A program made the translations under genes and the position numbers. This document shows positions 21,540-50,243 of a stretch of DNA of 50,243 nt, piece after piece. The stretch covers positions 1 through 50,243 of the forward strand of contig CAYNDS010000004.1 of assembly GCA_964395885.1 (NCBI GenBank), written 5' to 3'. This stretch comes from an uncultured Solibacteraceae bacterium (GTDB lineage: Bacteria; Acidobacteriota; Terriglobia; Bryobacterales; Bryobacteraceae). The notes under the pieces were generated by a model that had not been told where the DNA came from, searched no databases, and was given only the letters and a program-made list of their open reading frames with translations. Each line of letters begins with the position of its first letter. The stretch's first letter is position 1.

Positions 21540-21557
21540 GACGAAGGGAGCGGTGCC

Positions 21558-21854: not shown

Positions 21855-21857
21855 CCG

Positions 21858-27160: not shown

Positions 27161-27238
<78 letters not shown>

Positions 27239-32849: not shown

Positions 32850-32860
32850 GACGTCCTCCT

Positions 32861-33568
32861 CTACAGAACCTTCGACCAGTTCGCACTCGTGACATAGACG
32901 CCGAGCGGGTTGATACGCGCCAGCCGCTCATCTCGAGGTGGGTTAACGGCGATGGTGAACGCGCCCTTCCATTGCTCCTGCATCTTGATCGCGCCATACA
33001 AGTCGCGCGTCACTTCACGCCATTCCACTTCGAACGTGCGATCGCTCGTCGGCAGCACCGATTTCACTTCCACGGCCACCGTCTCCGTCTGCCCGCGCTT
33101 GTGCGGAGGGTCGGCACGGTAGAAGTCGCTGACGAAGGTTTGCGCCTGAGTGCCACTACCGATATGGGCGTAGACGCGGTCAATCGAGACACGCTGCGCG
33201 ATGCCGTCGGTAGTGACCGTGCGAAGCTGCTCCACCCAAACGGCCAGCGCGGCCTTTTTCAGGCGCTCGTCGGCGACGGAGGCTTGCTCGGCGACGCCCG
33301 CAGCCAGAGGGTGCCCGAGGTTGTCCACGGCAACGACGAACGGCACCACGCGAGAGCGGGAGGAGAGCCACACGACGGCGCCAGCAAGGATCAGGGAGTT
33401 GAGCGCGCAGAGACATGCGATCCAGCGCCAGTTGCGGGCGCGCGTGATCAGGTCGCCGTAGCGCTCGTCCCATTCGCGGCGGGCGGCGGCGTAGCCGGAG
33501 AGGGGCTGGGTTTCGGCGGACTGGTTGCGTTGGCTCCGGAAGAACCGGAGCGGGAATGAACTGGTCAT
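32861..33568 (-). CDS. trbF: Conjugal transfer protein TrbF (VirB8-like)
   Basis: Starting at ATG 33566-33568 gives MTSSFPLRFF…YAAARREWDERYGD…W, one TM helix, and an NTF2-like C-terminal domain. The upstream 86 codons of the listed ORF overlap trbL and were rejected. Confidence 0.85.
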   Translation of the reverse strand: MTSSFPLRFFRSQRNQSAETQPLSGYAAARREWDERYGDLITRARNWRWIACLCALNSLILAGAVVWLSSRSRVVPFVVAVDNLGHPLAAGVAEQASVADERLKKAALAVWVEQLRTVTTDGIAQRVSIDRVYAHIGSGTQAQTFVSDFYRADPPHKRGQTETVAVEVKSVLPTSDRTFEVEWREVTRDLYGAIKMQEQWKGAFTIAVNPPRDERLARINPLGVYVTSANWSKVL

Positions 33569-33578
33569 GAAATCTCCT

Positions 33579-34814: not shown

Positions 34815-34844
34815 GCGGCACCCCCGAAGTGCGTGCGAGGGCAG

Positions 34845-35174
34845 TTAGTGGATGCCTGGCCGGAACGTGCGATCGTCACCCTTGGCTGGCGCGCTGTTGA
34901 AGAACGCCACCGTGCGAGCGGCTGCGCACAACCGGCCCTCCGTCGTGTCGCCCCAGTTAGCGGGTGCGGACTGCCGCTTGGGACCGCAGAGCGCATCGAT
35001 CTCGCGAGACACGGCTTTGTGCTGACCCAGCCAAGCGGCCATGGACTGCGTGCTGGCCGTGGACAACTCGCCCGCGCCCGCCTTTTGCGCATGTTCCACG
35101 ATCGCGCTATGCTGCTGCCGACCGCATCCGGCCAGTGCCAGCGCGATGAGGCCGATCCAACAATACTTCGACAT
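34845..35174 (-). CDS. Small lipoprotein in the trbK position (candidate entry-exclusion protein)
   Basis: It has the lipobox LALAGC and is 109 aa long. It lies between trbJ and trbL, where TrbK or alternative TrbK proteins sit in P-type systems. Confidence 0.6.
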   Translation of the reverse strand: MSKYCWIGLIALALAGCGRQQHSAIVEHAQKAGAGELSTASTQSMAAWLGQHKAVSREIDALCGPKRQSAPANWGDTTEGRLCAAARTVAFFNSAPAKGDDRTFRPGIH

Positions 35175-35220
35175 CTCAGGTCACCTGCCATCACCATACT
35201 CCCGCGCGCCTCGAATCGCA

Positions 35221-35937
35221 CTACTTCGTCCCCGGTCGAAAGGTTCTTCCGTCACCTTCGGCGGGCGCACTCTTGAAGAAACGTTCAGAAGCGGCCTCCG
35301 CCGCGGCCTTTTCTTGGACGATGGCCGCCTGGAACGCCTGCTTGCTGGAAAGGTCAGCCATCATCAACTCGCGCAACTTCATTAGCTGCTGCACCTGCTG
35401 TTCGGCGACTTGCCCCATCACCTGGAGAGCCTGCATTCTCCCGTCGGAGGATGCGGCCATGGCTCGTAGCGAATCCAGTACCGCTTGCTCGTCCTTCAGT
35501 TGAGCGCCTTGCAGACCCGCCGCTCGGAGCGCGCCCAAGGTTGTATCCATGCTGGTCTGTGCCCAGCCCTTGTAGTGCGTGTAGTACGAGCCCGGAGTGT
35601 GCGCATAACCCTTGTAAATGGCTTTGAACTGCGCATCCAGACCGGCCATCGAGTACGCGAGGGCCATGCCGCCCTGAACCACGCCCGCGAGATCGTCGAT
35701 GTCCTTCTGGATCGGGCCGAAGATCTGAACCGGCAGGTTCTTCACGTTGCGTAGCATGTCGGCGTACTGCTTGGCCTCTTCGGCTAACTGCATGCCCTGA
35801 CGGATGTACTGCATGACCAACTGACCGTTGTTCAGGAGTTGCGTCAACTCCGTTGCGAATGCTCCGCCGTAAGCAGGCTGAGGGGCGTGTGAGGCTAGAC
35901 CCACGAAAAGTGTGGTCGCGATTACGCGCTTGTACAT
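35221..35937 (-). CDS. trbJ: Conjugal transfer protein TrbJ (VirB5-like)
   Basis: Starting at ATG 35935-35937 gives a signal peptide (MYKRVIATTLFVGLASHA). The helical or coiled-coil protein of ~238 aa overlaps the trbE stop by 16 nt. Confidence 0.85.
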   Translation of the reverse strand: MYKRVIATTLFVGLASHAPQPAYGGAFATELTQLLNNGQLVMQYIRQGMQLAEEAKQYADMLRNVKNLPVQIFGPIQKDIDDLAGVVQGGMALAYSMAGLDAQFKAIYKGYAHTPGSYYTHYKGWAQTSMDTTLGALRAAGLQGAQLKDEQAVLDSLRAMAASSDGRMQALQVMGQVAEQQVQQLMKLRELMMADLSSKQAFQAAIVQEKAAAEAASERFFKSAPAEGDGRTFRPGTK

Positions 35938-38360
35938 TGCGTTTTCTCCTTCAACGTTTCGAAGTAAGTGGCCCACTTCGCAAGTCCCTTGTGGCGCAGC
36001 CACTCTTCGCGCCAAACTTCGCCGAACTGTTCGGCGATGGACTCCGCAAGTTGACGCTCTTCACGCCCATTCACTCCGACAAACGCCAGCCCGACCTGTC
36101 CCAGCCCGAGGTCAACCATTCGGCGGCCCAACTTGCTGACCACGTAGTAGTGCTGCTTCGGGATTGCGACTTGGAGCAGGTCCAACTCGCGGTCATTCAG
36201 GCCGATGCGTTCGTAGAGTTCGCGCATGCCTGGCGTTTTGCACTCGGCGTTGGGCAGCAATACCTTAGTCGGGCAGTTCTCCAGAATGACGTCGGAGATG
36301 TTCGACGTGGCGACATCGCTGATCTGCTGCGTCGCCATCACGACGGCGGCATTCTTGCGGCGAAGCGTCTTGAGCCATTCGCGCAGCCGCTCCCGAAAGA
36401 GTCCGTGCTGCAGGTAGGACCAGGCTTCGTCAAGGAGAACGAGCGTCGGCGAACCGTCCAACCGCTGCTCGATGCGCCGGAAAAGGTATAGGAGAACCGG
36501 GACGACCGCCTTGTCGTCCAGTTGCAGCAGGTTCTCCATTTCGAAGGCGAGGAATCGGCCGGAGCCGAGCATGTCCTCGTCGGCGTCGAGCAAGGAACCC
36601 ATCGGACCCGCCACGGTGAAGTGCTGCAGGGCCTCGCGAACTTCCGGATCTTGGATGTTGGCGCTAAGCTCCGTTAGTGTGCGTGAGGGCGACAGACGCA
36701 GGTGCTGTACTGCCTGTGTCAGCGCGTTGCGGTGCTTCGGCGTGACCTTTAGGCCGTTCAGAATGCAAAGCGCCTCCGCCCACCCGACGGCCCACGTGAC
36801 ATGGGCATCGGAGTCGATGTGGCGAAGTGGGCAGAAGGCCAGATCGGTTTTCGGTCCGGCCAGGTCGTAGAACTCGCCACCCGCCGCGCGGTTCAGCATC
36901 CACATGGAATAGCCGCGGTCGAACGCGAACACTTGCGCGTTCGGATAGCGGAACCACTGCGCCGCGAAGAGCCCCAAGCAGGTGGACTTGCCGGCCCCGG
37001 ACGGCCCGAAGATCATCGTGTGGCCCACGTCTGATACGTGCAGGTGGAAGCGGAACGGCGTGGCTCCGGTGGTTGCGGCATACAACAGCGGCGGCGACTT
37101 TCGCGGCATCAAGGCCGAGGGGTTGTCACGCAGGCCCGCCCACACCGAAGTGGTCGGGAGAAGATCGGCGAGGTTCAACGTGTGAAGCAGGACTCGCCGC
37201 ACGTTTCGATACCCATCGCCGGGCAGTGTGCCGCGCCAGGCTTCGATCGCGTTGACGGTCTCCAGTCGGCAGGAGAAGCCGAGGTTCTGGATCGTCTTCA
37301 TCACTTGGCGAACACTGTCGCGAAGAGGCTCCTGGCTCTCGTCCAGGCAGACGATGTTCGCCGAGTACTGAGCGAACTGGACGTCCCCCGACGCGGCGAT
37401 CCCCATGGCATCCTCCGCGTCGACTGCCATCGCCTGCGCGTGGACGTTGATCGGGCCGCTCTCGCTTTTGAAGATCTGATCCTTCCAGCCCCGAATCTTT
37501 GAGCGCCACTTTTTTCGGTGCTTGTCGAGCAGCCCCCGCGCCTCCTCGGGATCCAGCAGGATTGCTCGTGTGTTGAAGCGGTACTCCAGCGGGAGCGTGT
37601 CTAACTCGCGGAGGATCCCGGGTGAACTGACACGAGGGAATCCGTCGATCGCAACGACGGCAATGAACTTCGCGCCAATGCTCGGCTCGATCCCGCCGCG
37701 GAAGTCTCCGCAGGCCAGCACGTCATTCAGGTACGCGGGAACCTCCGGCGTGGCAAAGGGAAAGTCCTCACCGCCGATGCATCTGCGCCAGAAGCGCAGC
37801 AGATCATTGAAAGAGTCCTGGGAACGGAGGCGTTCGACATGGAACAGATGGCCGAAGGTGTTCTCGAAGGCGTCGAGCTGCGTCTTAAATCGCTCTAGGG
37901 CTTGCGCACCGGCAGCGCGTTTGGCGGCTCCGTTGCGGCCATCGATCAGCCAGCCACGCGCCCGCTCTTCTGCCTCGACCGGCGGCAGATAGGTGAGGGT
38001 GAGGAAGTACTCCGACTCGAAGTGCGCACCCTCGGCCATGAACTGCTCGCGACGCTCGTCGTCAATCAGTCGGGTAACCGGGTCGGGAAACGCGCCCCGG
38101 TCCGGGTAACCCGGCGCACGGCTGCGAATCGCGTCGCACTGAACCATCCAACCGCTGCCCAGTCGCAATGCCGAGTTCAGCCGGGCACTCAAAGCATCCA
38201 TTTCGGCCGCAGCCGCGGACATCATGTCCGGACCGCGATAGCTCCAGGCGGCGAGGAGCGATCCGTCCTGCTGCAACAGAATGCCGTCGTCCACCAAGGC
38301 GAACGGCAATAAGAGATCGGCCAAGCCACGCGCCCGCGACCGATGTTCCCGCACCTGCAT
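35922..38360 (-). CDS. trbE: Conjugal transfer ATPase TrbE (VirB4 family)
   Basis: It has Walker A (GPSGAGKST) and Walker B (LVLLDEAW) and is ~812 aa from ATG 38358-38360, 2 nt after the trbD stop. The longer listed ORF overlaps trbD. Confidence 0.9.
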   Translation of the reverse strand: MQVREHRSRARGLADLLLPFALVDDGILLQQDGSLLAAWSYRGPDMMSAAAAEMDALSARLNSALRLGSGWMVQCDAIRSRAPGYPDRGAFPDPVTRLIDDERREQFMAEGAHFESEYFLTLTYLPPVEAEERARGWLIDGRNGAAKRAAGAQALERFKTQLDAFENTFGHLFHVERLRSQDSFNDLLRFWRRCIGGEDFPFATPEVPAYLNDVLACGDFRGGIEPSIGAKFIAVVAIDGFPRVSSPGILRELDTLPLEYRFNTRAILLDPEEARGLLDKHRKKWRSKIRGWKDQIFKSESGPINVHAQAMAVDAEDAMGIAASGDVQFAQYSANIVCLDESQEPLRDSVRQVMKTIQNLGFSCRLETVNAIEAWRGTLPGDGYRNVRRVLLHTLNLADLLPTTSVWAGLRDNPSALMPRKSPPLLYAATTGATPFRFHLHVSDVGHTMIFGPSGAGKSTCLGLFAAQWFRYPNAQVFAFDRGYSMWMLNRAAGGEFYDLAGPKTDLAFCPLRHIDSDAHVTWAVGWAEALCILNGLKVTPKHRNALTQAVQHLRLSPSRTLTELSANIQDPEVREALQHFTVAGPMGSLLDADEDMLGSGRFLAFEMENLLQLDDKAVVPVLLYLFRRIEQRLDGSPTLVLLDEAWSYLQHGLFRERLREWLKTLRRKNAAVVMATQQISDVATSNISDVILENCPTKVLLPNAECKTPGMRELYERIGLNDRELDLLQVAIPKQHYYVVSKLGRRMVDLGLGQVGLAFVGVNGREERQLAESIAEQFGEVWREEWLRHKGLAKWATYFETLKEKTQCTSA

Positions 38361-38362
38361 CG

Positions 38363-38683
38363 TTACCGCCACCTCATCGGGGTTTCCAGGCTTGCGGCAT
38401 GCAAGCCGCTCTTCGCCGGGTAGTACGCGGCGTAGCGAATGTGCCGCAGATAGATCGGACGCAACATTGGGTCCGCAGCGCCCATGCGTTGGAGCACCGC
38501 CGTTGCGCCCACCCAGAATGCCGCCGCCAAACCGACGCCCCACCACGACGCGAGGCTGAAGCCCAGCGCCACGACGACTAGCGCCGCGATCAGCACCAAC
38601 TCGCGGTCTCCGCCAAGGATGAGATTGGGACGGTTTGCGGACTGGTGAATGACGAGCTCGCGCGGTTTGACGGCAGTTTGCAT
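38363..38683 (-). CDS. trbD: Conjugal transfer protein TrbD (VirB3-like)
   Basis: The ~106-aa product (…LVIHQSANRPNLILGGDRELVLIAALVVVALGF…) has a hydrophobic hairpin. It lies between trbC and trbE, starting at ATG 38681-38683. Confidence 0.85.
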   Translation of the reverse strand: MQTAVKPRELVIHQSANRPNLILGGDRELVLIAALVVVALGFSLASWWGVGLAAAFWVGATAVLQRMGAADPMLRPIYLRHIRYAAYYPAKSGLHAASLETPMRWR

Positions 38684-38685
38684 GG

Positions 38686-39018
38686 CTATACCACCGCCGC
38701 CGTGACGCCGAACGCCGATGACAGCATCGGAGCGGCGAAGACCAGCACCGACACGACCAAGCCGATCATGCAAGCGCGGCGGCCGAACTCAGTCAGTTCG
38801 CCGCCCCACAGCATTGCGCCGCCGGCAATCGCGATCCCGATCAATCCGATGGCATACGCCACCGGACCGGTCAACGATGTCGCGATAGCCGTCATGGGGG
38901 CTTCCCACGGCAGCGTACCGGTCGTGCCAGCGTTGGCGTGCAAGGCGGCGGCCGCGAGTAGACAGAGAAACACGGCCACGCGAGTTTGCAGCGGCCGAAG
39001 GAAATAGAGCAGGGGCAT
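38686..39018 (-). CDS. trbC: Conjugal transfer pilin-like protein TrbC (VirB2 family)
   Basis: The 110-aa product has a long signal peptide followed by two hydrophobic helices. An AGGAGA SD precedes it and the position is as expected. Confidence 0.85.
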   Translation of the reverse strand: MPLLYFLRPLQTRVAVFLCLLAAAALHANAGTTGTLPWEAPMTAIATSLTGPVAYAIGLIGIAIAGGAMLWGGELTEFGRRACMIGLVVSVLVFAAPMLSSAFGVTAAVV

Positions 39019-39042
39019 ACGTTCTCCTGTAAGTTGAGGTGA

Positions 39043-40071
39043 CTAGACGTGCTCGATCACGTACCGCCCGTCGCGGTAGTCGTGGACGAGTAGAACTTCG
39101 CGGACCTTTCGGCCCGCTGGCAAGGAGCTTTCCTCGTCCACGAAGACGACCAAGTCCACGGCGGCGGCGATTAAGCTTTGCTGTGGAGCGGTGGTTGCCT
39201 CCGCGACCAGGCTCTCCAATCGGATCAGCCCGCTGAGGGCGTCATTGGCGTGTATGGTGGCGATGCCACCGGGATGGCCCGTGTTCCAGGCCTTCAGTAG
39301 CGTGTGGGCTTCCGCGCCGCGAACTTCGCCTACTACGATGCGATGGGGTTTCAGGCGCATCGACGCCCGGAGGCAGTCGAGCATCGTCACTTTCCCAACG
39401 GCACGCAGGTCGACAAAGTTCTTCACGGCGCATTGCAGTTCAGTTGTGTCCTCGATTACAATCACGCGGTCAGACGGCGTCTCCTCGCTGAAGACATCAA
39501 GGATGGCGTTGACCAACGTGGTTTTCCCGCTGCCGGTGGAGCCGACGATCAGGATGTTCTTGCGGGCGCGCACCGCCGCCCGAATCACTTCGGCGTGCGA
39601 AAGGCCGCGGACGAGCAGTCCGAAGTCGTCCCGCCGCCGCCGTGCGTTGAGAGGGTCCTCGCCCCGCGTCAGGATGCCGCTTTGCTCATACTCGGCGAGT
39701 CGGAAGATGCGTTTCGGTCGGAGCCGGATGGCAAACACCGGCGATCTGACGACGGGAGCGGTGAGGCCTTCAAAACGGCTACCGTCGAGGGGCAGTTCCG
39801 TTTCGAGAATCGGGTTTTCGGCGTTGATGAAGCAGTCGCGAGCCGCCGCGATGGTTTGCATCGCCGTGAGCGCCTGCTGAGGCGGCAGCGTGTCCACGGC
39901 TTCGAACGGCTCTCCCATGCGCTTGATCCAAACGGAGCTATCGGGATTGAGTAAGATATCTTCCGCGCGAGGGTCTGCCAGTAGCTTGAGTATTCGGTCA
40001 CCAAGCTCGCGCCGTAACTTCACCTCCAATCTTTCTTTTTTCTCGAAATTCGCGATGTCCGCTACCGGCAT
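39043..40071 (-). CDS. trbB: Conjugal transfer ATPase TrbB (VirB11 family)
   Basis: It has Walker A (GSTGSGKTT), Walker B (VIVIEDTTEL), the His-box region (IVVGEVRGAEA…TGHPG), and is first in the trb operon. Confidence 0.9.
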   Translation of the reverse strand: MPVADIANFEKKERLEVKLRRELGDRILKLLADPRAEDILLNPDSSVWIKRMGEPFEAVDTLPPQQALTAMQTIAAARDCFINAENPILETELPLDGSRFEGLTAPVVRSPVFAIRLRPKRIFRLAEYEQSGILTRGEDPLNARRRRDDFGLLVRGLSHAEVIRAAVRARKNILIVGSTGSGKTTLVNAILDVFSEETPSDRVIVIEDTTELQCAVKNFVDLRAVGKVTMLDCLRASMRLKPHRIVVGEVRGAEAHTLLKAWNTGHPGGIATIHANDALSGLIRLESLVAEATTAPQQSLIAAAVDLVVFVDEESSLPAGRKVREVLLVHDYRDGRYVIEHV

Positions 40072-40207: not shown

Positions 40208-40801
40208 ATGGCTGTCGTGACGATCCCTTCGAACTTTGACGAGCTGCCGGAGCCAGTGCGCCGCAGCGTCGTACCGATCTGCCTCAACGACGTCGATGAC
40301 CGTGGTCTGGCGATCCCCCACGGTTGGATCGACGCCGTCCATCGCGTAGCGGAACCGCTGCGCCTTTTGGCCAAACGCCGCCTCGGCGACGTGTGGATGG
40401 TGTCGGAACTCACCGAGACCAGCGTTCACGCTTTGGCCAAGCGACACGGCGAGGACCTTGGCCGCCACCCGCACCGTCGTATCTATGCGCGTGCCCGTTT
40501 CGATGCGGAGGATCTGCGGCGAGTGGATTGGCGGAATCGGCGAGGAAAGGTCATCGCTCCGGGAACGCTCGACCACTTCGTCGATCCGCAGAACTATGAA
40601 TCTCTTTACATTCAGGAGCTTTCGATTCGGAAGGCGGAAGAGTTCCTGAAGGAGAACAAGCAGGAGGATCTCGTGGCGGCGCTCGACTGCATGCGCCGCG
40701 GCTTACAGTGGGAAAGCATCGGCGAAGAGGTTGATGTCAAATGGCCCAATCTCAAGCGGCGCTGGTCACGCTGGATGAGCAGATTTCGTGATCAAGTCTA
40801 G
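40208..40801 (+). CDS. Divergent sigma-70/ECF-like factor (tentative)
   Basis: The C-terminus (LVAALDCMRRGLQWESIGEEVDVKWPNLKRRWSRWMSRFRDQV) resembles a region 4.2 HTH. The central segment (SELTETSVHALAKRH…RRIYARARFDAEDLRR) resembles region 2. It is followed by a ZAS-type anti-sigma-like gene. A GGAGAG SD precedes it. Confidence 0.45.
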   Translation: MAVVTIPSNFDELPEPVRRSVVPICLNDVDDRGLAIPHGWIDAVHRVAEPLRLLAKRRLGDVWMVSELTETSVHALAKRHGEDLGRHPHRRIYARARFDAEDLRRVDWRNRRGKVIAPGTLDHFVDPQNYESLYIQELSIRKAEEFLKENKQEDLVAALDCMRRGLQWESIGEEVDVKWPNLKRRWSRWMSRFRDQV

Positions 40802-40827: not shown

Positions 40828-41568
40828 ATGGCAGCGGACGACAGCCCGGAGCAGCGTTACAACCGGGCAATGCGGGCCGTGCAGGAGTCGATCCTCCGGG
40901 AGTTTCCTAACCCCGAGCGCAAGGGGTGTCCTGGCGACGCGGCGATTCGAGACCTGGTTCGGAACCGCTACAGTCACGGGGGCGGCGAGGTTTGGGAGCA
41001 CGTGACCCACTGCTCGCCCTGCTACCGCGAATACGTGAACTTGCTGGCGCTGGCGGAGCGGCCCAAGCGCCTTCCCCAGTTCGCGGCGATTGCAGCGGGC
41101 CTAGTGATCGTGTTCGCGATCGGCTTCTGGGCGCGTGGGTGGTGGGCCGGCCAGTCCCCCGTAGAGCAGCGACCTCCGCTTGTACAGAAGAGCCCAGAGC
41201 TGCCAAAGCAGCCACAAGTCCTCGCGGCGGTTCTGAACCTGCAAGATCTCTCGCCAACGCGCGGAGGTGATTCGGCTGCAGGAACGCTACAGCGGATTCC
41301 ACGCGCGGATGTGTCGCTGACCATCTATCTGCCGCGCGGAAGCGAGCCGGGCCGGTACTCGGTGGAGGTGCGGCGACGACCAGACTCGACCGAAGCGGTG
41401 GTTCGGAGTGAGGGTAGTGCTTCGATTCAGAACGGATTGACGATTCTGGTCGTGCGGTGCGACCTGAGCAGCGTGCCTCCCGGGAGGTACGTAGTTGCGA
41501 CACGCGGACCGGGAGAGAGTTGGAGACCCTACTCGGTCGCCATTGAGGCGGTCTCCCGTGCGAACTGA
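40828..41568 (+). CDS. Zinc-finger (HxxxCxxC) anti-sigma-factor-like membrane protein
   Basis: It has the HVTHCSPC motif at ~aa 60, a single TM (FAAIAAGLVIVFAIGFWARGWW), and a ~140-aa extracytoplasmic beta-rich domain. Confidence 0.55.
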   Translation: MAADDSPEQRYNRAMRAVQESILREFPNPERKGCPGDAAIRDLVRNRYSHGGGEVWEHVTHCSPCYREYVNLLALAERPKRLPQFAAIAAGLVIVFAIGFWARGWWAGQSPVEQRPPLVQKSPELPKQPQVLAAVLNLQDLSPTRGGDSAAGTLQRIPRADVSLTIYLPRGSEPGRYSVEVRRRPDSTEAVVRSEGSASIQNGLTILVVRCDLSSVPPGRYVVATRGPGESWRPYSVAIEAVSRAN

Positions 41569-41604
41569 TAGCATTCGCGACTACATTTAGCCTAGTTGCG
41601 TCTT

Positions 41605-41624
41605 AAGCCCGGCAACACGGGCTT
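41605..41624 (+). terminator. Hairpin after the anti-sigma gene (weak terminator candidate, no U-tract)
   Basis: AAGCCCG-gcaaca-CGGGCTT lies 37 nt after the stop at 41568. Confidence 0.3.
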
Positions 41625-41806
41625 CAAGGACATGTAAACGCCTGATTTCTCTCGGTTAGCTGTCATCATGGCGAACGCTCTTGCGAGCATGACGGATCAT
41701 CGTTCGCGGTCGGTTCCATCGATACAGCTGTGCTGCTGAGCGAAACTCGGCAGAAAAGTTGGATCGAGCGTAGTGTGTAGCGCGACACACCACAGTACAC
41801 TGAAGT

Positions 41807-44800
41807 GTGATCGAACATCCCGGCGCACTAATCAGAAGAGAAATCCTTCCCGCGATCTCCGTATCCGAAGCGGCCCGTGTGCTGGGAATAGGACGGCCGG
41901 CGCTCTCCAGCCTCCTCAATGGAAGAGCTGCACTTTCGTCCGAGATGGCAGCAAGGCTGGAAAGGGCATTTGGGGCTGATGCCAAAAAACTCTTGAAGTT
42001 ACAGGCCGATTACGACCAAAGCAAACGGCGCCATCGAATTGCCGCTTTGGCGATCACACCCTATGTGCCGCCATTCCTCAAGATCACTGCGGATCAGATT
42101 AGCCGATGGGCTACCACCATTACAGCTCGCTCTACGTTCCCCGTACTTCTCCGGAGGCTTGTGAATTCGACCGGGCGCTCTGTTACGTTCGTTGATTTTC
42201 CTGGATACGACATGGCGGAGAGGCCTGGCTGGGACGGGAGAGTCGAGTGCACGGCCCCGACACAATGGTTACCCTGTGGCGTCTCGTGCTGGGAGCTAGG
42301 GTGCAGCTCTGACCCCGGGAGGAAGGCCCGTAGCGATTACGAGAAGCGGACTAGGGAGGTTCCTCCCGGTGAAAGGCGCAAGGCTCACTTCGTCTTCGCA
42401 ACGCCACAGATCTGGAGAGACAAACAGAGGTGGGTGGACGAGATGCAAGCATCAGGCGAGTGGCGCTCTGTGAGAGCCTATGACGCCAATGATCTGGAGC
42501 ACTGGCTTGAGCAGTCTCTCCCAGCTCAGAGGTGGCTTGCCGAGCAGCTAGACATCCCACAGGATGGCGTCTATTCCCTCGAGGATCGGTGGCGTGACTT
42601 TGCTCTGCAAAGTACTCCGCCCTTGACACATCGGCTCTTCGACTCCGCCGTTCTTCGCTTTCGGTCTCTGGTCTTGGATTGGATATCCAGTCCGGATCCA
42701 CAAAAACTACTTGTAGCTGCCGACTCGAGAATTGAAGCACTAGCGTTCCTCTTCTGCCTATTCGAGCAAGAAGATTTCCACCAGTGCAGAGACCGAATTC
42801 TTGTCTTTTCCTCTGGTCCAGCACTGAAGAGGCTGACAACGCCTGAGCCGCCGTTCATCCCTGTGGTTTTCACAGACGAAGCGGAGCGTGCCCTATCCAA
42901 TGAGTACAACGGAAAACACGCAGTTATAGTACGGCACAAGCTTGCACCGTATTGCGAGCCAGCGATCACTCTTGACGTGCTTGACAACGAAGGGTTTCGG
43001 AAGGGGCTGGAAGCAATGGGGATAACGGACCATCTTGAAATTGACAAACTAGGCCGTGAGTCCGGCTATTCCCCCACGATCCTCCGTCGGCGCCTCTCTA
43101 CCGTCCCGGCAATCCAAACGCCTACCTGGGCGAAGGATGCAGAAACAGCACGCCGACTGATTCCGATGATGCTCGCTGGAGCCTGGAACGTTGAGCTTCA
43201 GGGTGACCGTGAGGCTATCGAGTCTCTGAGCCAGCAATCGGCCGACCAAATCGAAGCGACGGTTGCCGAGTTCCTGCAGCTGGAAGACTCACCGATCTGG
43301 CGATCCGGCTATTCTCGCGGCGTTGCGTCGAGGCGTGACGCTCTCTTCGCAGTGGCACCTTACCTTACAAGGAACCATATCCAAACGTTCACTTCGATCG
43401 CATACTCAGTCCTGGCCGAAGCTGATCCCACCTTGGAGCTGTCAGATGACGAGAAACCGTTCGCGGTGCTTTACAACAAGTCTCGTCTTCATTCTGATTC
43501 CCTCCGACGAGGATTATGCGTGAGCCTAGCGCTCTTGCACATTCACGGAGGAGACGTCCTGCAGCGACAGACAGGCTATGACCCTCGCCGGGACGTCGAA
43601 TCGCTTATCCGCCGCCTTCTGACGCCGCTCACGCCAGACCTGTTGTACTCACAGCAGGACCTTCTACCGCTTTACGCGGAAGCGGCTCCCGAGACGCTAC
43701 TGGCAATAATCGAAGATGACCTTGGATCTGTGGCTCCAGCCACTTACTCGCTAATCTGCCGAGGGAGCTCAGGAGTCTTCGGAAGCTGTCCTCGGAGCGG
43801 TCTTCTCTGGGCCCTAGAGGTACTTGCCTGGGATCCACTTCTCTTCTCACGGGTGTCCCTTATCCTTGCCCAGCTCGCTACGCTGCCGCTTCTGGACAAC
43901 TGGAGCAATACAGCGTTCAATAGCCTCGCAGCTGTGTTCAGGTTCTGGATGCCACAGACGACCGCAGACGTGAGCGCTCGGATTAAAGCCCTAGAAGTTG
44001 TTGTTCACCGATTCCCCGTTATTGGCTGGAAGCTGTGCATTGCGCAGCTAGCATGTTTTCTTCAGACCGGTACCTACAGCAGCCGTCCGAAGTGGCGACA
44101 GCTTTCTAAGGGCGCTGGTCACCCAATATCCAGTACTCATGAACGGGATGTGTTCCGGCGGAAGGCGCTGGACCTTGCTCTCGGCTGGGCGACACATGAT
44201 GAACACACGTTGGGCGACTTGGTGGCTACACTCAATGGTCTTTCGGAGGCTGACCAGACAGCCATATGGGACCAGATCGACAGGTGGGCCATGGAAGAAA
44301 AGGACGACAAGCGAAAGGCAGCACTCCGGGCGCAGATCCGACTCTTAACAGTTCGAATGTCGCGGGAACAGGATTCGATTGAGTCCAAAAGTCGGGCGCG
44401 ATCTGCATACGAAGCACTGGCACCGACAGATCCATCGATTGGTCATGCATGGCTCTTCGAGAATCACTGGTTAGCCTACTCCTACCAGGAACTGCAGGAA
44501 GGCCCAATTGAGCACTTGGAACGCGACGCGAAGGTCGAATCTGCAAGGCGAGCCGCCCTGTCCGAGATCTGGCAAATGAATGGTGCTGTAGGAGTCAAGT
44601 CGCTCGTAGAGACTGCCAACTCACCATTCACCGTTGGGTCAACCTTGGCGTGTTTAAAGAATGCCTTAGACCTCGAGGCGCTTCTGCTACAGCTGTTGGA
44701 CGAAAAGGACCCGGTGAAGGCCTCCAACATCGACGAGGCGATTCGGGGGCTTCTCGCGCGATTAAATCCACAGGAGCGCCTTCCGTTGATCGATGGCCTG

Positions 44801-45844
44801 ATACATCGCTCACCGACTGACGCTATTCGTCGGATTCTCAGAAGCTCGCCGTTTGGACGGGAAACGTGGAAGCGTGTTGCGAGCCGTGGTGCCGCGGTAG
44901 AGCAGCAATACTGGCGCGAGATCCACCCAGGAAGACTGGGAGATGACCGTGCAGAGCTGAATGACGCAGTCGACTGCCTGTTGGCCGCTCGAAGGCCCAG
45001 GGCGGCTTTCTACTGTGTCGAGTTCGCTCTAGAACATGTCGAGACTTCTCGGTTGCGACGTATCGTTTACGAGGTGCGAACGGTGAACGAGGAAGAGCCC
45101 GGAACATATCTGGTGGAGGCATACCATCTTTCTCAGGCTCTCGACATACTGCAAACCCGCGAAGACATTAGTGAGGAGGAGATGGCGAGTCTCGAGTTTC
45201 TGCATGTGGATGCTTTAGAACATCAGAAGCACGGCATCCCAAATCTCGAGAAGCAGTTGTCAAGGTCGCCTGCGCTGTTTGTTCGAGCCTTGGCGCTTGC
45301 GTTCGGTCGCGAAGACGGTAAGACCGATCCTCCCGAGTGGGGGCAAGTAGGTGAGGCTAGCGGCCTCCTGGCACACCGCCTCCTTCGGAATGTAAAGCGG
45401 ATTCCAGGTGCGAGCGATCGCGACAGTTGCATCAATAAGGACGCTCTGCGTACATGGGTTAGCGAATCTCGATCACTCGCTGCAGCTCATGGCAGAGCAG
45501 ACCGCGGCGATGAGTATATCGGGATCATCCTGTCGGCCTCCCCCACTGGCGAGGATGGAATCTGGCCATGTGTGGAGGTCCGCGAGGTTATTGAGGAAGC
45601 ACACAGCTACCACCTTGGCCGCGGAGTCCTTGTTGGTGTTCAGAGCTCATTCGGCGTTTATATCCGCCACGAGGGGGGGACACGAGAGAGACAGCTTGCT
45701 TCAAGGTATCAGCACTGGGCTGATGACTTGCTGGCCGAATACCCCCACACTTCCGAGGTTGTGCGCCGAATATCGCGGTCCTACGAGGACCAGGCGCGCA
45801 GAGAAGAGTTATCAGTGACGGCAAGCAGACGGCTTCGAAGTTGA
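41807..45844 (+). CDS. 1345-aa protein: N-terminal HigA/Xre-type HTH fused to a very large uncharacterised, mostly alpha-helical region
   Basis: Residues 1-75 (MIEHPGALIRREILPAISVSEAARVLGIGRPALSSLLNGRAALSSEMAARLERAFGADAKKLLKLQADYD) match the HigA antidote HTH pattern. The remainder has no P-loop or other motif I can name. The GTG start lies one codon after an in-frame stop, so it is fixed. Confidence 0.8.
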   Translation: MIEHPGALIRREILPAISVSEAARVLGIGRPALSSLLNGRAALSSEMAARLERAFGADAKKLLKLQADYDQSKRRHRIAALAITPYVPPFLKITADQISRWATTITARSTFPVLLRRLVNSTGRSVTFVDFPGYDMAERPGWDGRVECTAPTQWLPCGVSCWELGCSSDPGRKARSDYEKRTREVPPGERRKAHFVFATPQIWRDKQRWVDEMQASGEWRSVRAYDANDLEHWLEQSLPAQRWLAEQLDIPQDGVYSLEDRWRDFALQSTPPLTHRLFDSAVLRFRSLVLDWISSPDPQKLLVAADSRIEALAFLFCLFEQEDFHQCRDRILVFSSGPALKRLTTPEPPFIPVVFTDEAERALSNEYNGKHAVIVRHKLAPYCEPAITLDVLDNEGFRKGLEAMGITDHLEIDKLGRESGYSPTILRRRLSTVPAIQTPTWAKDAETARRLIPMMLAGAWNVELQGDREAIESLSQQSADQIEATVAEFLQLEDSPIWRSGYSRGVASRRDALFAVAPYLTRNHIQTFTSIAYSVLAEADPTLELSDDEKPFAVLYNKSRLHSDSLRRGLCVSLALLHIHGGDVLQRQTGYDPRRDVESLIRRLLTPLTPDLLYSQQDLLPLYAEAAPETLLAIIEDDLGSVAPATYSLICRGSSGVFGSCPRSGLLWALEVLAWDPLLFSRVSLILAQLATLPLLDNWSNTAFNSLAAVFRFWMPQTTADVSARIKALEVVVHRFPVIGWKLCIAQLACFLQTGTYSSRPKWRQLSKGAGHPISSTHERDVFRRKALDLALGWATHDEHTLGDLVATLNGLSEADQTAIWDQIDRWAMEEKDDKRKAALRAQIRLLTVRMSREQDSIESKSRARSAYEALAPTDPSIGHAWLFENHWLAYSYQELQEGPIEHLERDAKVESARRAALSEIWQMNGAVGVKSLVETANSPFTVGSTLACLKNALDLEALLLQLLDEKDPVKASNIDEAIRGLLARLNPQERLPLIDGLIHRSPTDAIRRILRSSPFGRETWKRVASRGAAVEQQYWREIHPGRLGDDRAELNDAVDCLLAARRPRAAFYCVEFALEHVETSRLRRIVYEVRTVNEEEPGTYLVEAYHLSQALDILQTREDISEEEMASLEFLHVDALEHQKHGIPNLEKQLSRSPALFVRALALAFGREDGKTDPPEWGQVGEASGLLAHRLLRNVKRIPGASDRDSCINKDALRTWVSESRSLAAAHGRADRGDEYIGIILSASPTGEDGIWPCVEVREVIEEAHSYHLGRGVLVGVQSSFGVYIRHEGGTRERQLASRYQHWADDLLAEYPHTSEVVRRISRSYEDQARREELSVTASRRLRS

Positions 45845-46011: not shown

Positions 46012-47259
46012 TCAGCGATGGACGTGAGCTGAGGCTTGTTCTAGTTGATCATCAATAGCCCTTGCCAAATGTTCAGGAATCTGATCCACACGTTCATTCG
46101 GTTCGACGCCCTTTCCCTCGACCGGTTGCCCCTCCGACGTGAACCAGGCCGCGATCGGAATCCGCAGGCGATAGCCGGACGGCAGTGTGAAATTCGCGCC
46201 GCCCAGCACCTCTCCCGCGGATGGTTCACCGATGATCGTTGCGAGACCATTCGCCTTCGCAAAAGTAGTCACCATCTCCGCCGCGCTGTGCGAGAACCGG
46301 TTCTGCAATACAGAAATGCGGCTGTGGAATGGCTGCTGGCCGAGCCCCTCGGTCACCAAGCGCATGGACCGGTCTCGGTTCAGCAGTAGAAATCGGAGCG
46401 CCAAAGGTACCGCGCCCAGCTTGCTGTCGGGAACTTTGTCGATGCTGGGGAGGGAGTCCGGAGAAGCGGTGGCGCGCTTTCGTGTCAGGGTGTAGCCCAC
46501 CAAGCGCTTGTCCGGACAGAACAAGCTCATCAGCCGAAGCGAGCCTAGGCCGCCACCTACGTTTCCTCGAAGATCGACGACCAGGCGCTGGCAACCATGG
46601 CGGTTCAAGTCTTGTAAGGCCTGTCCGAGTGCTTTGACGAAGTCCAGGCCAACGGCCCCCGGAAATCGCGCGACCCGGAGGTAGCCAACGTCTTTTGAGA
46701 GCATCTTGTGACTGATTGCGCGCGGCTGAATGTTCGTTTGGCCTTTGATCGGGAGTCCGCCGGCCTGGATGCTGACAAGGCGGGTGGTTCCGTTCGGAAA
46801 TAGCCGGGTCGTCAATTCGTGAACCTTTCCCGCTCCCCAGAGCGGCGGTTTGTCGGTGGCGAGCGGCTTGCCATCTACGGCAACCAGCACCTCGCCCGGT
46901 TTCAGACCCGCACGGGCGGCAATACCTTCGTCGAGCACATCCCAGAACAACCATTCGAACCCTCGCGGACTCTCAATCCGGCGCAGCGTCGCGTGAAGTG
47001 CATGCGCGGTGGGCACGCCTTGGCCACTAGGAGCGATGAGGGCCGTATGGCTGGTCCCGAGCACGCCGAGGAGGTTCGCCACGCCAAGTTCGAAGTCCTG
47101 ATCGGTCTTTGTCGCGGTCAGGCCCGCCGACTGGTCGTCCACAAGCGCCGCCCAATTGTCGTAGGATCGCGTCGGATTGCGCGGATCGATGTGTCTCTCG
47201 ATGACGAGCGCCCGGACCGCGCCGAGGATGGCGGCTTTCTCTTCATTGCTTAGGCTCAT
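46012..47259 (-). CDS. S41-family peptidase with PDZ domain; no signal peptide, so cytoplasmic
   Basis: It has a PDZ segment (GLKPGEVLVAVDGKPL), VVDLRGNVGGG, and the nucleophile motif FSHSAAEM (Ser codon at 46285-46287). A strong AGGAGGGG SD precedes it and its start overlaps the CHAT gene stop by 17 nt. Confidence 0.85.
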   Translation of the reverse strand: MSLSNEEKAAILGAVRALVIERHIDPRNPTRSYDNWAALVDDQSAGLTATKTDQDFELGVANLLGVLGTSHTALIAPSGQGVPTAHALHATLRRIESPRGFEWLFWDVLDEGIAARAGLKPGEVLVAVDGKPLATDKPPLWGAGKVHELTTRLFPNGTTRLVSIQAGGLPIKGQTNIQPRAISHKMLSKDVGYLRVARFPGAVGLDFVKALGQALQDLNRHGCQRLVVDLRGNVGGGLGSLRLMSLFCPDKRLVGYTLTRKRATASPDSLPSIDKVPDSKLGAVPLALRFLLLNRDRSMRLVTEGLGQQPFHSRISVLQNRFSHSAAEMVTTFAKANGLATIIGEPSAGEVLGGANFTLPSGYRLRIPIAAWFTSEGQPVEGKGVEPNERVDQIPEHLARAIDDQLEQASAHVHR

Positions 47260-49840
47260 GACCCCTCCTGCTTGTCAAGGGACGGCTCCCCTCGCCTTCG
47301 AGGATGAAGCCTGCCCAGTAGTACGGCTCCAGCTTTGGCCCGAACTTCCGCATCAACTCCCGCTTTGCCAAGGCGAGCGCCTCCGATGGCGGCCGTCCCG
47401 CGCCGAGGTTTCGGTAGAACGAACGCATCAGGGCCAACGTGAACGTATCGTCGACCGGCCACAGCGTCGACACCACCGCCTGCGCACCGGCGAGCAGGAA
47501 CGCTCGGGAGAGGTTCGCAATTCCCTCTTGGCCCTGCAACCGGCCGACTCCGGTGTCACATGCCGACAGGACTACCAGGCGAGCAGTCGTTCGCCACTGG
47601 CCGATCTCGGCTACGTCCAGGATGCCGTCGTTGCCGTTTTTCGGATCGGGTTGGAGCAGAACAGCGGCGCGGTCCGGCGAGACCTCGTCAGCGTGGCCAT
47701 GGGCGGCAATGTGAATGATCGAGAAATCTCTGGCGAGCGCTTCTTGCAGCACTCGTTCGGTTGCTTCAGCGCCCACAATGGCTCGGCTTCGTTGCGGACG
47801 ATAGAACTGCGCAGCCGCTACGGCCTCATCCCGCGACGCCGGTATGTTGCCCCAGCCCTCCACAGTCATCCCGCGCGCGCTGGCCAGCTTCGCCGTGTTC
47901 GCACTGTAAGGAACGCCGCCGAGAGCAAACACGCCGCCAATGACCGGCAGCCGCTTCTCGGATCGCAGCAAGTGCAAGATGCTGGCCGACGGGATGAACG
48001 AGACATCGCGAGTTTCCGCCAGCAGCCGTCCACGACTGTCTTGGAGGGTGTCGAACGGAAGGCTGTGCAGCACGCCATCCCGCGCAATCACGACGTGTCG
48101 GTAAGTGGGGGCAGAGGCCTCTGCGGGCAAGAGTATCTTCGATAGCCGCCGAGTACTCGTCGAACGCTTTGCCCTAATGCCCGAGCGGAGTTGCTCGATC
48201 TGCTCCGCGATTTCGGCGGCCTCGTCGACTCGGTCCAGGCGGACCGCCGCTCGAGTGATCGTGAACCGGTACAGGTCCCTTGCCGAAACGACGAAGGCTA
48301 ACAGCAATTCCTCAGGTTCCAAGGTTTGTTGAACGTCCGCTAACGCGACCGGTGTCGAAGCGATTCGGCTACGCGCATCCGGTGGGGCGATCCAGCGTCG
48401 CTGATCTTCGTAGAAGATCGCGTCCTGGATCGAGTGGCGCTCCGCCCGTGTTCTGGCCGTGACAAGCGCGAGGCGTAATCTGCTGACGCGCCGGTCGATG
48501 CTCGGATCGGAGTCCTGCTGCTTCGCGCCTGCCGCGAGCAAGTCGCGCATGGCTCGCGCTCGGATCTGCTCCATCACGGAGAAGGCGCGGCCCGAATCCC
48601 GTAGTTGACCGGCAAGCAAGGCGAAGTGCTCAGTATGCAACTCGCCGAATTGGCTGACCAGCGAAGTGCGCACCGCGAAGTTGGGGTTGCTGTCGATCAA
48701 GCCGGAGATGATCGCTTCACCACGGTCGTAGGTGGCATCGGCGGCTTGCCAATCTCGGCGCGCTGATTGCAACTGGGCCAGGGTGAGCAAGCGACGGGGC
48801 ACGAGGTAGACCTCCGAAGCGTCCGAGACACTGTCCAGCCCTTGTGAGATTTGCGCCTCTGCTTCGTCCAGCCGGTTACTTTTGCGATACAGGTCCGCAA
48901 GGTCAAAGCGGGCGGCCAGGGCAAGTCGAGGGAAGCCGCCTTCCTGCGCGATGTTCACGGCGAGTCGCAGTCGCTCCTCCCCTTGATCCACCCGGCCCGT
49001 CGCGGCACTCACGTCCGCCAAGGTGATCAGCGTCTGAGCCTCCTTAATCTTTCTCTTGAGCCGACGGGCCTGCGAGAGGATGTCAGCTCCGATCGCTTCC
49101 GCGGCGTCGAACTGGCGAGTCTTGCGGAAGGCCGCCAACCGAGCGGTCGGCAAAGGAAAGTAGTAGCCCATTTCCGGTGCAGCCGCGATCGCTTTTTCCG
49201 CCTTGGCAAGGTACGGGAAAGCCTGCTCGGGCATTTTCCCCAACGCGAGCGAATTGGCAATCGCCGAGAGGAATCGCACGAGTGCAGGAACGTCGCGGGA
49301 GCGTTCCGCCGTCACCAACGCCCCGGCGACGAGTTGACGGGCAGTGACAACATCGCCGAGGACGAACGAGGCTAGGCCGATTTCGCCCGAAGCTCGACTC
49401 GCTAAGCGATGATCGCCGGCGTCTGTAGCCAGTTTGCGCACTTCTTCCCAATCGCGCTTCATCGTGGCGGCATCGATTTCGCCGTGTACGTCGCCTCTGG
49501 CCGCTAGGCAGAAAACGCGTGCCGTCACAGCTTCCGAAGGTAGACCGTCGAGGACCGCGGTGAGCTGGTCGACAACATCGGATAGCTGTCGCCGCTCCAT
49601 GGTGGCGCGCAGCAGCCCGCACTTTGCGGTTGCAACGTCACCGGGCTTCGCCTCCGATGGCGACGCTTTCAGGGCTGACTGGAAGCCTACCTCTGCATCA
49701 GCCCAGTTGTAGGCCGCTGCCGACGTTATCGCCTGATCCAACGAGCTGCAATCGCCCGCCGAGAGCATCGCCATCGACGCCAGCGCCATCCCGATTAGCC
49801 GTCCGCAATCCCTTGCCGCTGGGGAGGTTTTCGTGGACAT
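47243..49840 (-). CDS. TPR-repeat + CHAT (caspase-like Cys protease) domain protein
   Basis: The C-terminal CHAT domain has the His/Cys dyad IIHIAAHGH (His codon 47699-47701) and VVLSACDTG (Cys codon 47558-47560). About 500 aa of TPR-like repeats lie upstream. I chose ATG 49838-49840, which gives a signal-like N-terminus (MSTKTSPAARDCGRLIGMALASMAMLSAG); ATG 49789 is an alternative. ORF codons above 49840 are the antisense shadow of the repB-like gene. Confidence 0.8.
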   Translation of the reverse strand: MSTKTSPAARDCGRLIGMALASMAMLSAGDCSSLDQAITSAAAYNWADAEVGFQSALKASPSEAKPGDVATAKCGLLRATMERRQLSDVVDQLTAVLDGLPSEAVTARVFCLAARGDVHGEIDAATMKRDWEEVRKLATDAGDHRLASRASGEIGLASFVLGDVVTARQLVAGALVTAERSRDVPALVRFLSAIANSLALGKMPEQAFPYLAKAEKAIAAAPEMGYYFPLPTARLAAFRKTRQFDAAEAIGADILSQARRLKRKIKEAQTLITLADVSAATGRVDQGEERLRLAVNIAQEGGFPRLALAARFDLADLYRKSNRLDEAEAQISQGLDSVSDASEVYLVPRRLLTLAQLQSARRDWQAADATYDRGEAIISGLIDSNPNFAVRTSLVSQFGELHTEHFALLAGQLRDSGRAFSVMEQIRARAMRDLLAAGAKQQDSDPSIDRRVSRLRLALVTARTRAERHSIQDAIFYEDQRRWIAPPDARSRIASTPVALADVQQTLEPEELLLAFVVSARDLYRFTITRAAVRLDRVDEAAEIAEQIEQLRSGIRAKRSTSTRRLSKILLPAEASAPTYRHVVIARDGVLHSLPFDTLQDSRGRLLAETRDVSFIPSASILHLLRSEKRLPVIGGVFALGGVPYSANTAKLASARGMTVEGWGNIPASRDEAVAAAQFYRPQRSRAIVGAEATERVLQEALARDFSIIHIAAHGHADEVSPDRAAVLLQPDPKNGNDGILDVAEIGQWRTTARLVVLSACDTGVGRLQGQEGIANLSRAFLLAGAQAVVSTLWPVDDTFTLALMRSFYRNLGAGRPPSEALALAKRELMRKFGPKLEPYYWAGFILEGEGSRPLTSRRGHEPKQ

Positions 49841-50243
49841 GGCACAGGCGGGATTGCGAAGGACGATATCGGCTGTCGAGCGGCAGATTGGAGCAATGGG
49901 CTGCGCTTCATACGAAGTCGGCCTACTGTCGTCGCGGGAGAACCAAGCAGCAGCGATGTTGCTCCGTACCTGGACTGCCGAAGAGGTCCTACGAGCGGTG
50001 CCCTGGATGCGCCACCAAAACGCGGCTGGACGCCATGTGTACATACGGCCCGCTGGTGAGCACGCATTGACCTTGGTCGACGATTTGAGTGTGCCGGCCT
50101 TGACTGCGTGCACGAAGTCGGGCGTCGACTTCGCGGCGATTATCGAGACGTCCAAGGACAACTTCCAGGCCTGGCTCAAGCACGACCGAACGCTCTCGAA
50201 GGACCTCAGCAGTGCAGTTGCCAAGGTGGTGGCGCGAGAACTC
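49839..50243 (+). CDS. RepB-primase-domain protein (ICE/plasmid replication-mobilisation type), 5' part only; open at the window end
   Basis: The frame is open from ATG 49839 (or GTG 49833) to the edge and is preceded by GGGGAGG. It translates to MAQAGLRRTISAVERQIGAMGCASYEVGLL…WTAEEVLRAVPWMRHQNAAGRHVYIRPAGEHALTLVDDLSVPAL…AAIIETSKDNFQAWLKH. This is the hallmark pattern of RepB'-type primase domains. Confidence 0.7.
   Translation, partial: MAQAGLRRTISAVERQIGAMGCASYEVGLLSSRENQAAAMLLRTWTAEEVLRAVPWMRHQNAAGRHVYIRPAGEHALTLVDDLSVPALTACTKSGVDFAAIIETSKDNFQAWLKHDRTLSKDLSSAVAKVVAREL

Follow-up and report, generated by a model that had tools for sequence, protein, structure and literature searches.

The closest described counterparts of the protein considered here are Avs3 (8dgc), Avs4 (8dgf) and Avs8. 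Each is a single large polypeptide with a nuclease-type effector at its N-terminus, a nucleotide-binding oligomerisation domain (NOD), itself composed of a nucleotide-binding domain (NBD), a helical domain and a winged-helix domain, and a helical repeat sensor at its C-terminus. Avs8, the name now given to PD-lambda-4A, is a capsid-sensing STAND protein with a nuclease domain of the Mrr type as well as a P-loop NTPase. The same arrangement is predicted for the product of a gene at 41807..45844 (+ strand) in contig CAYNDS010000004.1 of an uncultured Solibacteraceae bacterium, which was analysed over positions 1 to 50,243; this whole stretch of 50,243 nucleotides is called the window below. The gene encodes 1345 amino acids plus stop and shows a full-length, co-linear alignment with hundreds of relatives of about 1355 amino acids, whose sporadic distribution near defence and mobile genes is shared with the Avs proteins. 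Unlike Avs3, Avs4 and Avs8, the members of this family have no Walker A loop, and a HigA-type helix-turn-helix (HTH) domain with a conserved operator is fused to the N-terminus. We propose, with a probability of roughly 55%, that the gene encodes a stand-alone, self-repressed, Avs-like (bacterial NLR/STAND-type) sensor-effector carried as cargo of an integrative conjugative element (ICE).

Fold of the body and the Walker A position

The body of the protein was modelled with AlphaFold2 (AF2) as two overlapping halves, using 81-sequence alignments. Residues 80–760 were predicted with a pLDDT of 86.9 and a pTM of 0.78, and residues 700–1345, which are all helices, with values of 88.9 and 0.78. 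When the N-terminal half was compared with the PDB by Foldseek, the 21 best matches were all STAND proteins (E 1.6e-8 to 1e-2). The ranking is led by Avs3 with terminase (8dgc, 1.6e-8), the Avs5 filament (9nc9, 1.1e-6), SAMD9 (9zjv) and Avs4 with portal (8dgf), and further matches include Apaf-1, the archaeal TPR-STAND 6mfv, CED-4 and NLRC4. Among viral predicted structures (BFVD), the same half matches AAA+/RFC clamp loaders. From the AF2 models and the Foldseek matches, the anatomy is read as the HTH followed by an alpha/beta domain, a NOD-like module and a solenoid. The fold of the body is very probably STAND-like, and the modelled architecture is that of the nuclease-bearing Avs proteins. 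A preliminary description of the gene had left about 1270 residues unassigned and guessed at an immune sensor. The models now place these residues in a tripartite STAND/NLR (Avs-like) architecture, and the guess agrees with this fold, since the best structural matches are Avs3, Avs4, Avs5, SAMD9, Apaf-1 and CED-4. Its picture of a long helical repeat applies to the all-helical solenoid; residues ~300–390, however, are modelled as a nucleotide-binding-like alpha/beta fold, followed by a winged-helix module.

Searches of Pfam, NCBIfam and PADLOC with the target protein gave nothing over cut-off except the HTH, and phmmer and hmmsearch comparisons of the body with PDB sequences gave no match above threshold beyond it. 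A match of the body to VMAP-M2 (E 1.6e-3, 2 of 30 members) was discarded as noise. Two PADLOC PD-Lambda-4_A profiles weakly match 16 plus 4 of 30 members, 20 in all, with a best E of 2.7e-4 over ~130 residues. The matches are co-linear with the 1283-position profile, to which the ~1260-residue body is near in length, and the weak match in the target lies at residues 623–759. The family as such is unrecognised by PADLOC, and no Avs8B-like partner gene and no conserved downstream gene was found, in which it differs from Avs8. No convincing transmembrane segment was found in the target protein either (top 19-residue hydropathy, 1.77), as had been described before.

The predicted NOD module spans residues ~258–520 (42578..43366, +) and comprises a nucleotide-binding-like alpha/beta domain, a helical domain and a winged-helix domain, as indicated by the PDB matches and by the AAA+/RFC matches in BFVD. 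The Walker A loop would be expected at residues 300–311 (KLLVAADSRIEA; 42704..42739, +), where the family consensus reads PLIVCADSKxEA, with no glycine-rich loop and no conserved lysine. In the AF2 model, only residues 306 and 307 lie between the strand 300–305 and the helix 308–319. Among 256 sequences, S307 is kept in 252 and E310 in 254, whereas lysine or arginine at position 308 is found in only 169. The motif [AG]xxxxGK[ST] is present at this position in none of the 255 relatives and in none of five distant plasmid homologues (25–37% identical), and it occurs nowhere in the 1345-residue protein, in agreement with the earlier remark that there is no P-loop. The sequences thus make it highly probable that Walker A has been lost family-wide. 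Degenerate Walker motifs have been noted for one Avs8 homologue, KpAvs8; in the present family, by contrast, the loss extends to the family as a whole.

Candidates for other elements of a nucleotide-binding module are retained in the majority of members. In the putative Walker B region, after the strand 351–354, position 358 is acidic in 215 of 256 sequences and E360 is kept in 222. A candidate sensor-1 arginine, R376, is found in 172 of 256 sequences on the strand 372–377, and position 378 is arginine or lysine in 229. The helical domain of the NOD carries a G-x-SPTILRRRL motif at residues 420–430, which resembles the GxP/GLPL motif of NB-ARC proteins. The spacing is comparable with that of PaAvs5 (~46 residues between the Walker A lysine and Walker B, and ~20–28 between Walker B and the conserved arginine). 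Within the N-terminal half, conservation is lowest in the NBD core (residues 321–360).

N-terminal to the NOD lies a restriction-endonuclease-like alpha/beta domain (residues ~95–250; 42089..42556, +), a predicted nuclease effector on the grounds of its AF2 topology, its conservation and a BFVD match. It is modelled, mostly with pLDDT above 85, in the order alpha-beta-beta-beta-alpha-beta-alpha-beta, and the BFVD entry 'Restriction endonuclease' is matched over 179 columns with a probability of 1.0 and an E of 0.035. The candidate catalytic residues, picked out by conservation, are D143 (42233–42235), E163 (42293–42295) and K173 (42323–42325), all on the + strand, together with D177 and D226. 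In the 256 sequences they are kept in 255 (D143), 255 (E163), 256 (K173), 253 (D177) and 255 (D226) cases, and all five persist in distant plasmid branches that are only 25–30% identical. D143 is situated in a G-W-D-G stretch just before strand 2, and E163 in W-E-F-G on strand 3, a modelled arrangement that fits a PD-(D/E)xK core. Residues ~95–260 had already been described as faintly reminiscent of a D...E...K restriction-endonuclease core, a likeness that the topology and the near-invariant D143, E163 and K173 support. Conservation and model together make an active nuclease somewhat more probable than an inactive one.

The remainder of the protein is an all-alpha solenoid (residues ~521–1345; 43367..45841, +; AF2 pLDDT 88.9), which is predicted to be the ligand sensor. 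In structure searches, this half gives generic HEAT/ARM matches only (exportins, beta-catenin, SF3b). According to the conservation profile, its most variable stretch is residues ~921–1040.

The HigA-type domain and its operator

The N-terminal domain (residues 1–78; 41807..42040, +) is a HigA-type Xre HTH. Residues 4–75 score 59.6 bits against NCBIfam TIGR02607 (antidote_HigA; cut-off 47.7) and 27.4 bits against Pfam HTH_3, and PDB chains of solved HigA structures match it with E between 6e-5 and 2e-2, all of which upholds the first identification of this domain. The HigA antitoxins of type II HigBA systems thus share the domain with the target, and they share a palindromic operator in the own promoter, as is known for autorepressing antitoxins (for the target, the operator is a computational result). 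In other respects the two differ. HigA antitoxins have about 100 residues, whereas the target has 1345, ~1260 of them in other domains, and the HTH is dispensable in some members of the target family. HigBA systems have an adjacent HigB/RelE toxin gene, whereas none is present in the window or as a conserved neighbour of the relatives. The absence of a HigB/RelE-like gene upstream had been pointed out before and stands: the longest + strand reading frame in 41569–41806 has 23 codons, the − strand frames in this interval are mechanical overlaps, no neighbour is conserved in 79 loci, and the list of 25 families drawn up for the 123 immediate neighbours of the relatives contains no toxin family.

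The gene starts with GTG. An in-frame TGA two codons 5′ of GTG 41807 makes a longer reading impossible. The NCBI gene call for this locus (P0001, 1299 amino acids) starts at Met47 and cuts off most of the HTH (window 41807–41944); we favour GTG 41807 over Met47 on the strength of the family alignment and the operator upstream. The copy in the window is intact, since it departs from only 3 of the 98 columns that are at least 95% conserved in 255 relatives.

The operator is a new finding of this analysis. Of 57 regions upstream of relatives, 44 contain the 7-mer TGTAGCG or its complement, which is seen in 2.5% of the control windows drawn from these loci (p ~8e-59). It forms the centre of a 26-bp palindrome, TTGTATTGTGTAGCGCTACACGATACA. 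A position weight matrix (PWM) was derived from 35 sites at other loci, leaving out the window, and hits were counted if they lay no more than 300 nt upstream and exceeded the 99th percentile of background. All 70 HTH-bearing loci have such a site, with the gene-strand consensus TTGTAttGTGTaGCGCTACACgATACAnT; the 6 loci that lack an aligned HTH, of which 4 are HTH-less and 2 have a match that begins further in, have none. Over the 70 loci, the site lies a median of about 50 nt before the protein alignment begins (at residues ~3–6). In the window, the operator is the 26-bp near-palindrome CGTAGTGTGTAGCGCGACACACCACA at 41769..41794 (+), with arms at 41770–41781 and 41782–41793. Its score is 29.8 bits, where the 99th percentile of background is 8.2. 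No other PWM site occurs in the 50-kb window and no other inverted repeat in the intergenic region before the gene, and the operator ends 12 nt before the GTG. The outer arms of the palindrome read TTG...(16–18 nt)...TAnnnT in 32 of the 70 loci, resembling an embedded −35 and −10. Because the palindrome often contains such promoter-like hexamers, the HTH, which co-occurs perfectly with the operator, is most likely an autorepressor of its own gene; we hold this prediction from sequence comparison with considerable confidence. The preliminary description had the HTH anchoring a sensor to DNA, and an autorepressor with a conserved operator explains the domain better.

In other branches of the family the body is preceded by a different Xre-like HTH (Rhizobium), by a MerR/excisionase-like HTH (Arthrobacter) or by none. 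Since these HTH types are unrelated or absent altogether, the DNA-binding head looks like an exchangeable regulatory accessory rather than a core part of the machine. On an Adhaeribacter plasmid (L094, 908–6765), an HTH-less relative directly follows genes for an Xre-HTH regulator, an ImmA/IrrE metallopeptidase and a PDDEXK nuclease on the same strand, an arrangement that resembles CapH/CapP-type control of defence genes. CapH/CapP and BrxR/CapW-type systems are like the target in that a potentially toxic defence gene is held off by an HTH repressor at the promoter. The parallel with the CapH/CapP type extends to this HTH-less relative behind an HTH and ImmA/IrrE pair and to the M78 peptidase/capP matches among the family neighbours. 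The difference is that the repressor of the target is fused in cis to the sensor-effector.

Some further features of the upstream regions were observed. One alphaproteobacterial clade (L056, L061, L063, L066, L072) has a conserved leader of ~110 nt, located ~120 nt upstream of the gene and before the start codon, with the nested complementary stretches GCTCAGG...GTCTCGCC...CTCTGAGC; it may be a structured 5′ untranslated region. In L061 and L063, the operator core 7-mer lies ~130 nt upstream of the HPG codon. Two metagenome-assembled genomes (L056/L066 and L037/L076) each have two family copies on different contigs, all with the same operator type, so the paralogues could cross-regulate. P0065 and P0114 may share one 31-kb contig.

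Family spread and genomic context

A word-indexed search returned 1573 relatives among 8000 candidates. Among the 120 matches listed, most are full-length (1355–1365 amino acids), 44–51% identical and, where labelled at all, labelled 'HigA family addiction module antidote'. With residues 86–1285 as query, an exhaustive HMMER search matched 6272 clusters (50% identity) when the limit was E ≤ 1e-3, and 2526 when it was E ≤ 1e-30. Almost all are of equal length and have an N-terminal extension of ~90 residues; in a minority of ~1260 amino acids, the protein begins with the body itself. A genome scan with a single protein as query found nothing. An alignment-based scan, which covered one genome for each GTDB species, returned 180 loci, of which 80 were kept; the neighbour counts are from 79 loci. 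The hosts of the kept loci belong to Acidobacteriota, Chloroflexota, Alpha-, Gamma- and Deltaproteobacteria, Firmicutes, Nitrospirota, Planctomycetota, Cyanobacteria, Gemmatimonadota, Binatia, Latescibacterota and Methylomirabilis, and the spread of the family is patchy over more than 12 phyla.

Relatives are carried by 25 plasmids, 12 of them conjugative, and are annotated there as 'HigA antitoxin', 'helix-turn-helix transcriptional regulator' or 'hypothetical protein'. A match on a Salmonella plasmid is a fragment and was uninformative, as was that on the Buttiauxella plasmid NZ_CP033075 (L092), which is apparently 5′-truncated and covers query residues 359–1245 only, with the N-terminal third missing; about 1 kb upstream of the latter, on the opposite strand, is a group II intron reverse transcriptase gene. 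On CP074271 (L091), a remnant of 110 amino acids lies among toxin-antitoxin genes. On Rhizobium leguminosarum pPR4 (L090, 6481–15695), the gene is located between genes for an 'RHE_PE00001 family protein' and a hypothetical protein of 1281 amino acids on the same strand, which may be a multi-gene variant of the system; this rhizobial branch is 29% identical and has a different HTH. PHROG 18693, whose function is unassigned, matches residues 93–1338 with an E of 6e-116, and INPHARED gave one weak partial match.

We found no description of the family in the literature, as the earlier suggestion of an undescribed architecture would have it. The tripartite STAND/NLR plan is known, however, and the 6272 clusters are labelled only 'HigA antitoxin' or 'HTH regulator'. 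What is new is the fused autorepressor together with the family-wide loss of the P-loop; the Avs/NLR-like architecture is known, and the protein is not categorically new. A STAND census (Nature 2026;657:735, PMC13581612) describes a search seeded with NTP-binding domains, and a search so seeded could have missed a family that lacks the P-loop.

No neighbouring family recurs in more than 7 of the 79 loci and the orientation of the neighbours is random; this is a one-gene system. Within two genes of the relatives are found type I restriction-modification subunits, McrBC, GmrSD, Type ISP, TOTE primase, DUF499/DUF1156, SIR2, a C5 methylase and SoFic, as well as M78 peptidases, integrases, resolvases, transposases and MobA. 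Several candidate partners were rejected. A divergent DUF4172-Fic (SoFic) gene is located upstream in 3 of the first 5 contexts but makes up only 4 of the 123 immediate neighbours in the 79 loci, and its adjacency is read as lineage-specific synteny or co-location in islands. A divergent pair of ECF sigma and zf-HC2 genes upstream of one relative (L006) suggested an ECF sigma/anti-sigma link, which does not recur elsewhere. The S41 peptidase and the TPR-CHAT protein next to the target gene, which had been named as possible associates, were not found beside relatives and are not conserved partners.

The window itself supports the earlier assignment of the gene to ICE cargo. A tRNA-Pro(CGG) gene at 27161–27238, the only match that Rfam gave, is followed by a tyrosine integrase (28715–29833) and by Trb-type type IV secretion system (T4SS) genes (30386–40071). 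The GC content falls from 0.65 to 0.57 after tRNA-Pro, and the target gene is in the cargo beyond the Trb T4SS genes. The tRNA-Pro/integrase end is probably the attachment end of the ICE, with the other end beyond the contig. Directly upstream of the target are two cargo reading frames without a family match (40208–40801 and 40828–41568, both +); the nearer, of 246 amino acids, has a CxxC...HCxxC motif like that of zf-HC2 anti-sigma factors and a hydrophobic segment. Downstream, and convergent to the target, are the genes for an S41 peptidase with a PDZ domain (46012–47259, −) and for the TPR-CHAT protein of 993 amino acids (47243–50224, −), the former overlapping the end of the latter by 17 nt. 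The CHAT domain matches PADLOC BovA (Borvo) with an E of 1e-9 and, weakly, type III-E Csx29. The pair may be a separate protease-type defence module and, given the resemblance of the CHAT domain to BovA, the cargo may form a small defence island. In the chromosomal part of the window, a reading frame of 852 amino acids (19800–22358, −) has no Pfam match at E ≤ 1e-3.

Proposed mechanism and alternative readings

In the mechanism that we propose, the HigA-type HTH, presumably as a dimer, would bind the 26-bp palindrome over its own promoter and keep the potentially toxic protein at a low level; comparative genomics argues strongly for this step. By analogy with Avs sensors, the C-terminal alpha-solenoid would recognise a molecule indicative of an incoming phage or mobile element. 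Binding of this ligand would release the NOD, which would drive oligomerisation, and, as Walker A is missing family-wide, this step would probably be independent of ATP binding and hydrolysis or would use a non-canonical ligand. The oligomerised restriction-endonuclease-like domains may then cut DNA and thereby abort the infection or destroy the invader. We lean towards such an immune role, by a modest margin over the absence of one.

Several observations weigh against this reading. The P-loop, which defines STAND NTPases, is absent in the family, and Walker A is essential in the characterised PaAvs5. In the nuclease-like domain, the position of the +2 lysine of ExK is taken by Gly/Ser165, and the invariant K173 is on the next helix. 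When hhalign was used to compare the N-domain with Mrr of E. coli and with an alignment of Mrr, the probability was a non-significant 0.2%, though GWDG pairs with GIDG of Mrr, and profile searches of PDB sequences with the N-domain gave no match. The PADLOC PD-Lambda-4_A matches are far below significance (best 2.7e-4), and sequence likeness to the Avs proteins is below significance. The operator in the window is only 12 nt from the GTG, and no clear −35/−10 or Shine-Dalgarno sequence is seen here. Defence genes make up about 8–9% of the neighbours within two genes on either side, by a rough count without a formal background, and many loci are beside ordinary metabolic genes. With a mean column identity of 68%, the family is better conserved than would be usual for a sensor in an arms race, and a pattern scan confirmed no relative in IMG/VR viral contigs.

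It is conceivable that the protein regulates genes and nothing else. It would then be a STAND-class transcription factor that senses a ligand, in the manner of MalT, AfsR or GutR, and its nuclease-like domain would be a non-catalytic scaffold or a second DNA-binding surface. MalT, AfsR/SARP-STAND and GutR do fuse a DNA-binding domain to a NOD and a helical repeat sensor, and the STAND census (PMC13581612) counts transcriptional regulators among the non-immune STANDs. The conserved operator marks the HTH as a probable sequence-specific DNA binder, and RefSeq names many members 'helix-turn-helix transcriptional regulator'. Yet these regulators have functional P-loops and control neighbouring operons, whereas the target has no P-loop and no regulon in cis: there is no conserved neighbouring operon to regulate, and the only conserved site is that in its own promoter, once in the 50-kb window. 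The target further differs from them in its extra nuclease-like domain, whose invariant acidic and lysine residues of catalytic type would not be expected of a scaffold, and in its HTH-less members, which retain the whole body and so indicate that the function of the body needs no DNA binding. Taken together, this makes a purely regulatory role improbable. The same HTH-less members, along with those that carry unrelated HTH types, also bear on a second idea, namely that of a toxin-antitoxin or addiction module fused into one chain, which would stabilise the ICE or plasmid and in which the HigA domain would neutralise or repress the fused nuclease toxin until loss of the element frees its toxicity. 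They imply that restraint of the body does not depend on the HTH. A HigA-type domain over the cut-off of the HigA model, the frequent location on conjugative plasmids and ICEs, often among toxin-antitoxin genes, and the predicted repression of its own gene at a palindromic operator, which is classical for type II antitoxins, would all suit such a module. A covalently fused antitoxin, however, cannot be degraded separately in the usual way, and a simple addiction module would leave ~1100 residues of NOD and solenoid without a role. Of the 80 loci, moreover, the majority are on chromosome-sized records or large contigs, a count that refers to the size of the records alone. We therefore judge an addiction module just as improbable as a mere regulator.

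Somewhat less improbable, though still unlikely, is a protein of the same architecture with another trigger, which would serve as a weapon between mobile elements (plasmid or ICE exclusion) or in surveillance of DNA damage or of the nucleoid. In the window the gene is carried as cargo by a conjugative element, and relatives are carried by 12 conjugative plasmids; the high conservation of the family across phyla would suit a conserved trigger, and the lack of relatives in the pattern scan of IMG/VR viral contigs points the same way. Against this, the neighbours are classical anti-phage and restriction genes; the present data do not separate this role from anti-phage defence. The Avs-like sensor-effector remains our preferred reading. 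A bolder version of it, which we put forward as doubtful, would see in the protein a nucleotide-independent NLR-like receptor that is its own repressor and represents a widespread, unrecognised Avs class, thousands of whose members are labelled 'HigA antitoxin'. In this version, the resting HTH dimer would sit on the promoter-embedded palindrome, and, once the solenoid had bound a ligand from the invader, ATP-less oligomerisation through the NOD would both activate the nuclease and pull the HTH off the operator, with a feed-forward burst of sensor synthesis as the result. If true, it would be a natural example of a STAND switch without its nucleotide.

The annotation of thousands of proteins in more than 12 phyla rests at present on 75 of 1350 residues. 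If these proteins are Avs-like sensor-nucleases, they would be a large addition to the catalogue of bacterial NLR-type immunity, and their loss of Walker A would be a natural test of a nucleotide-free STAND/NLR switch. The operator provides a testable example of a defence protein that would repress its own promoter via a fused domain, and it may be handy as a cis-element for finding family members and controlling their expression.

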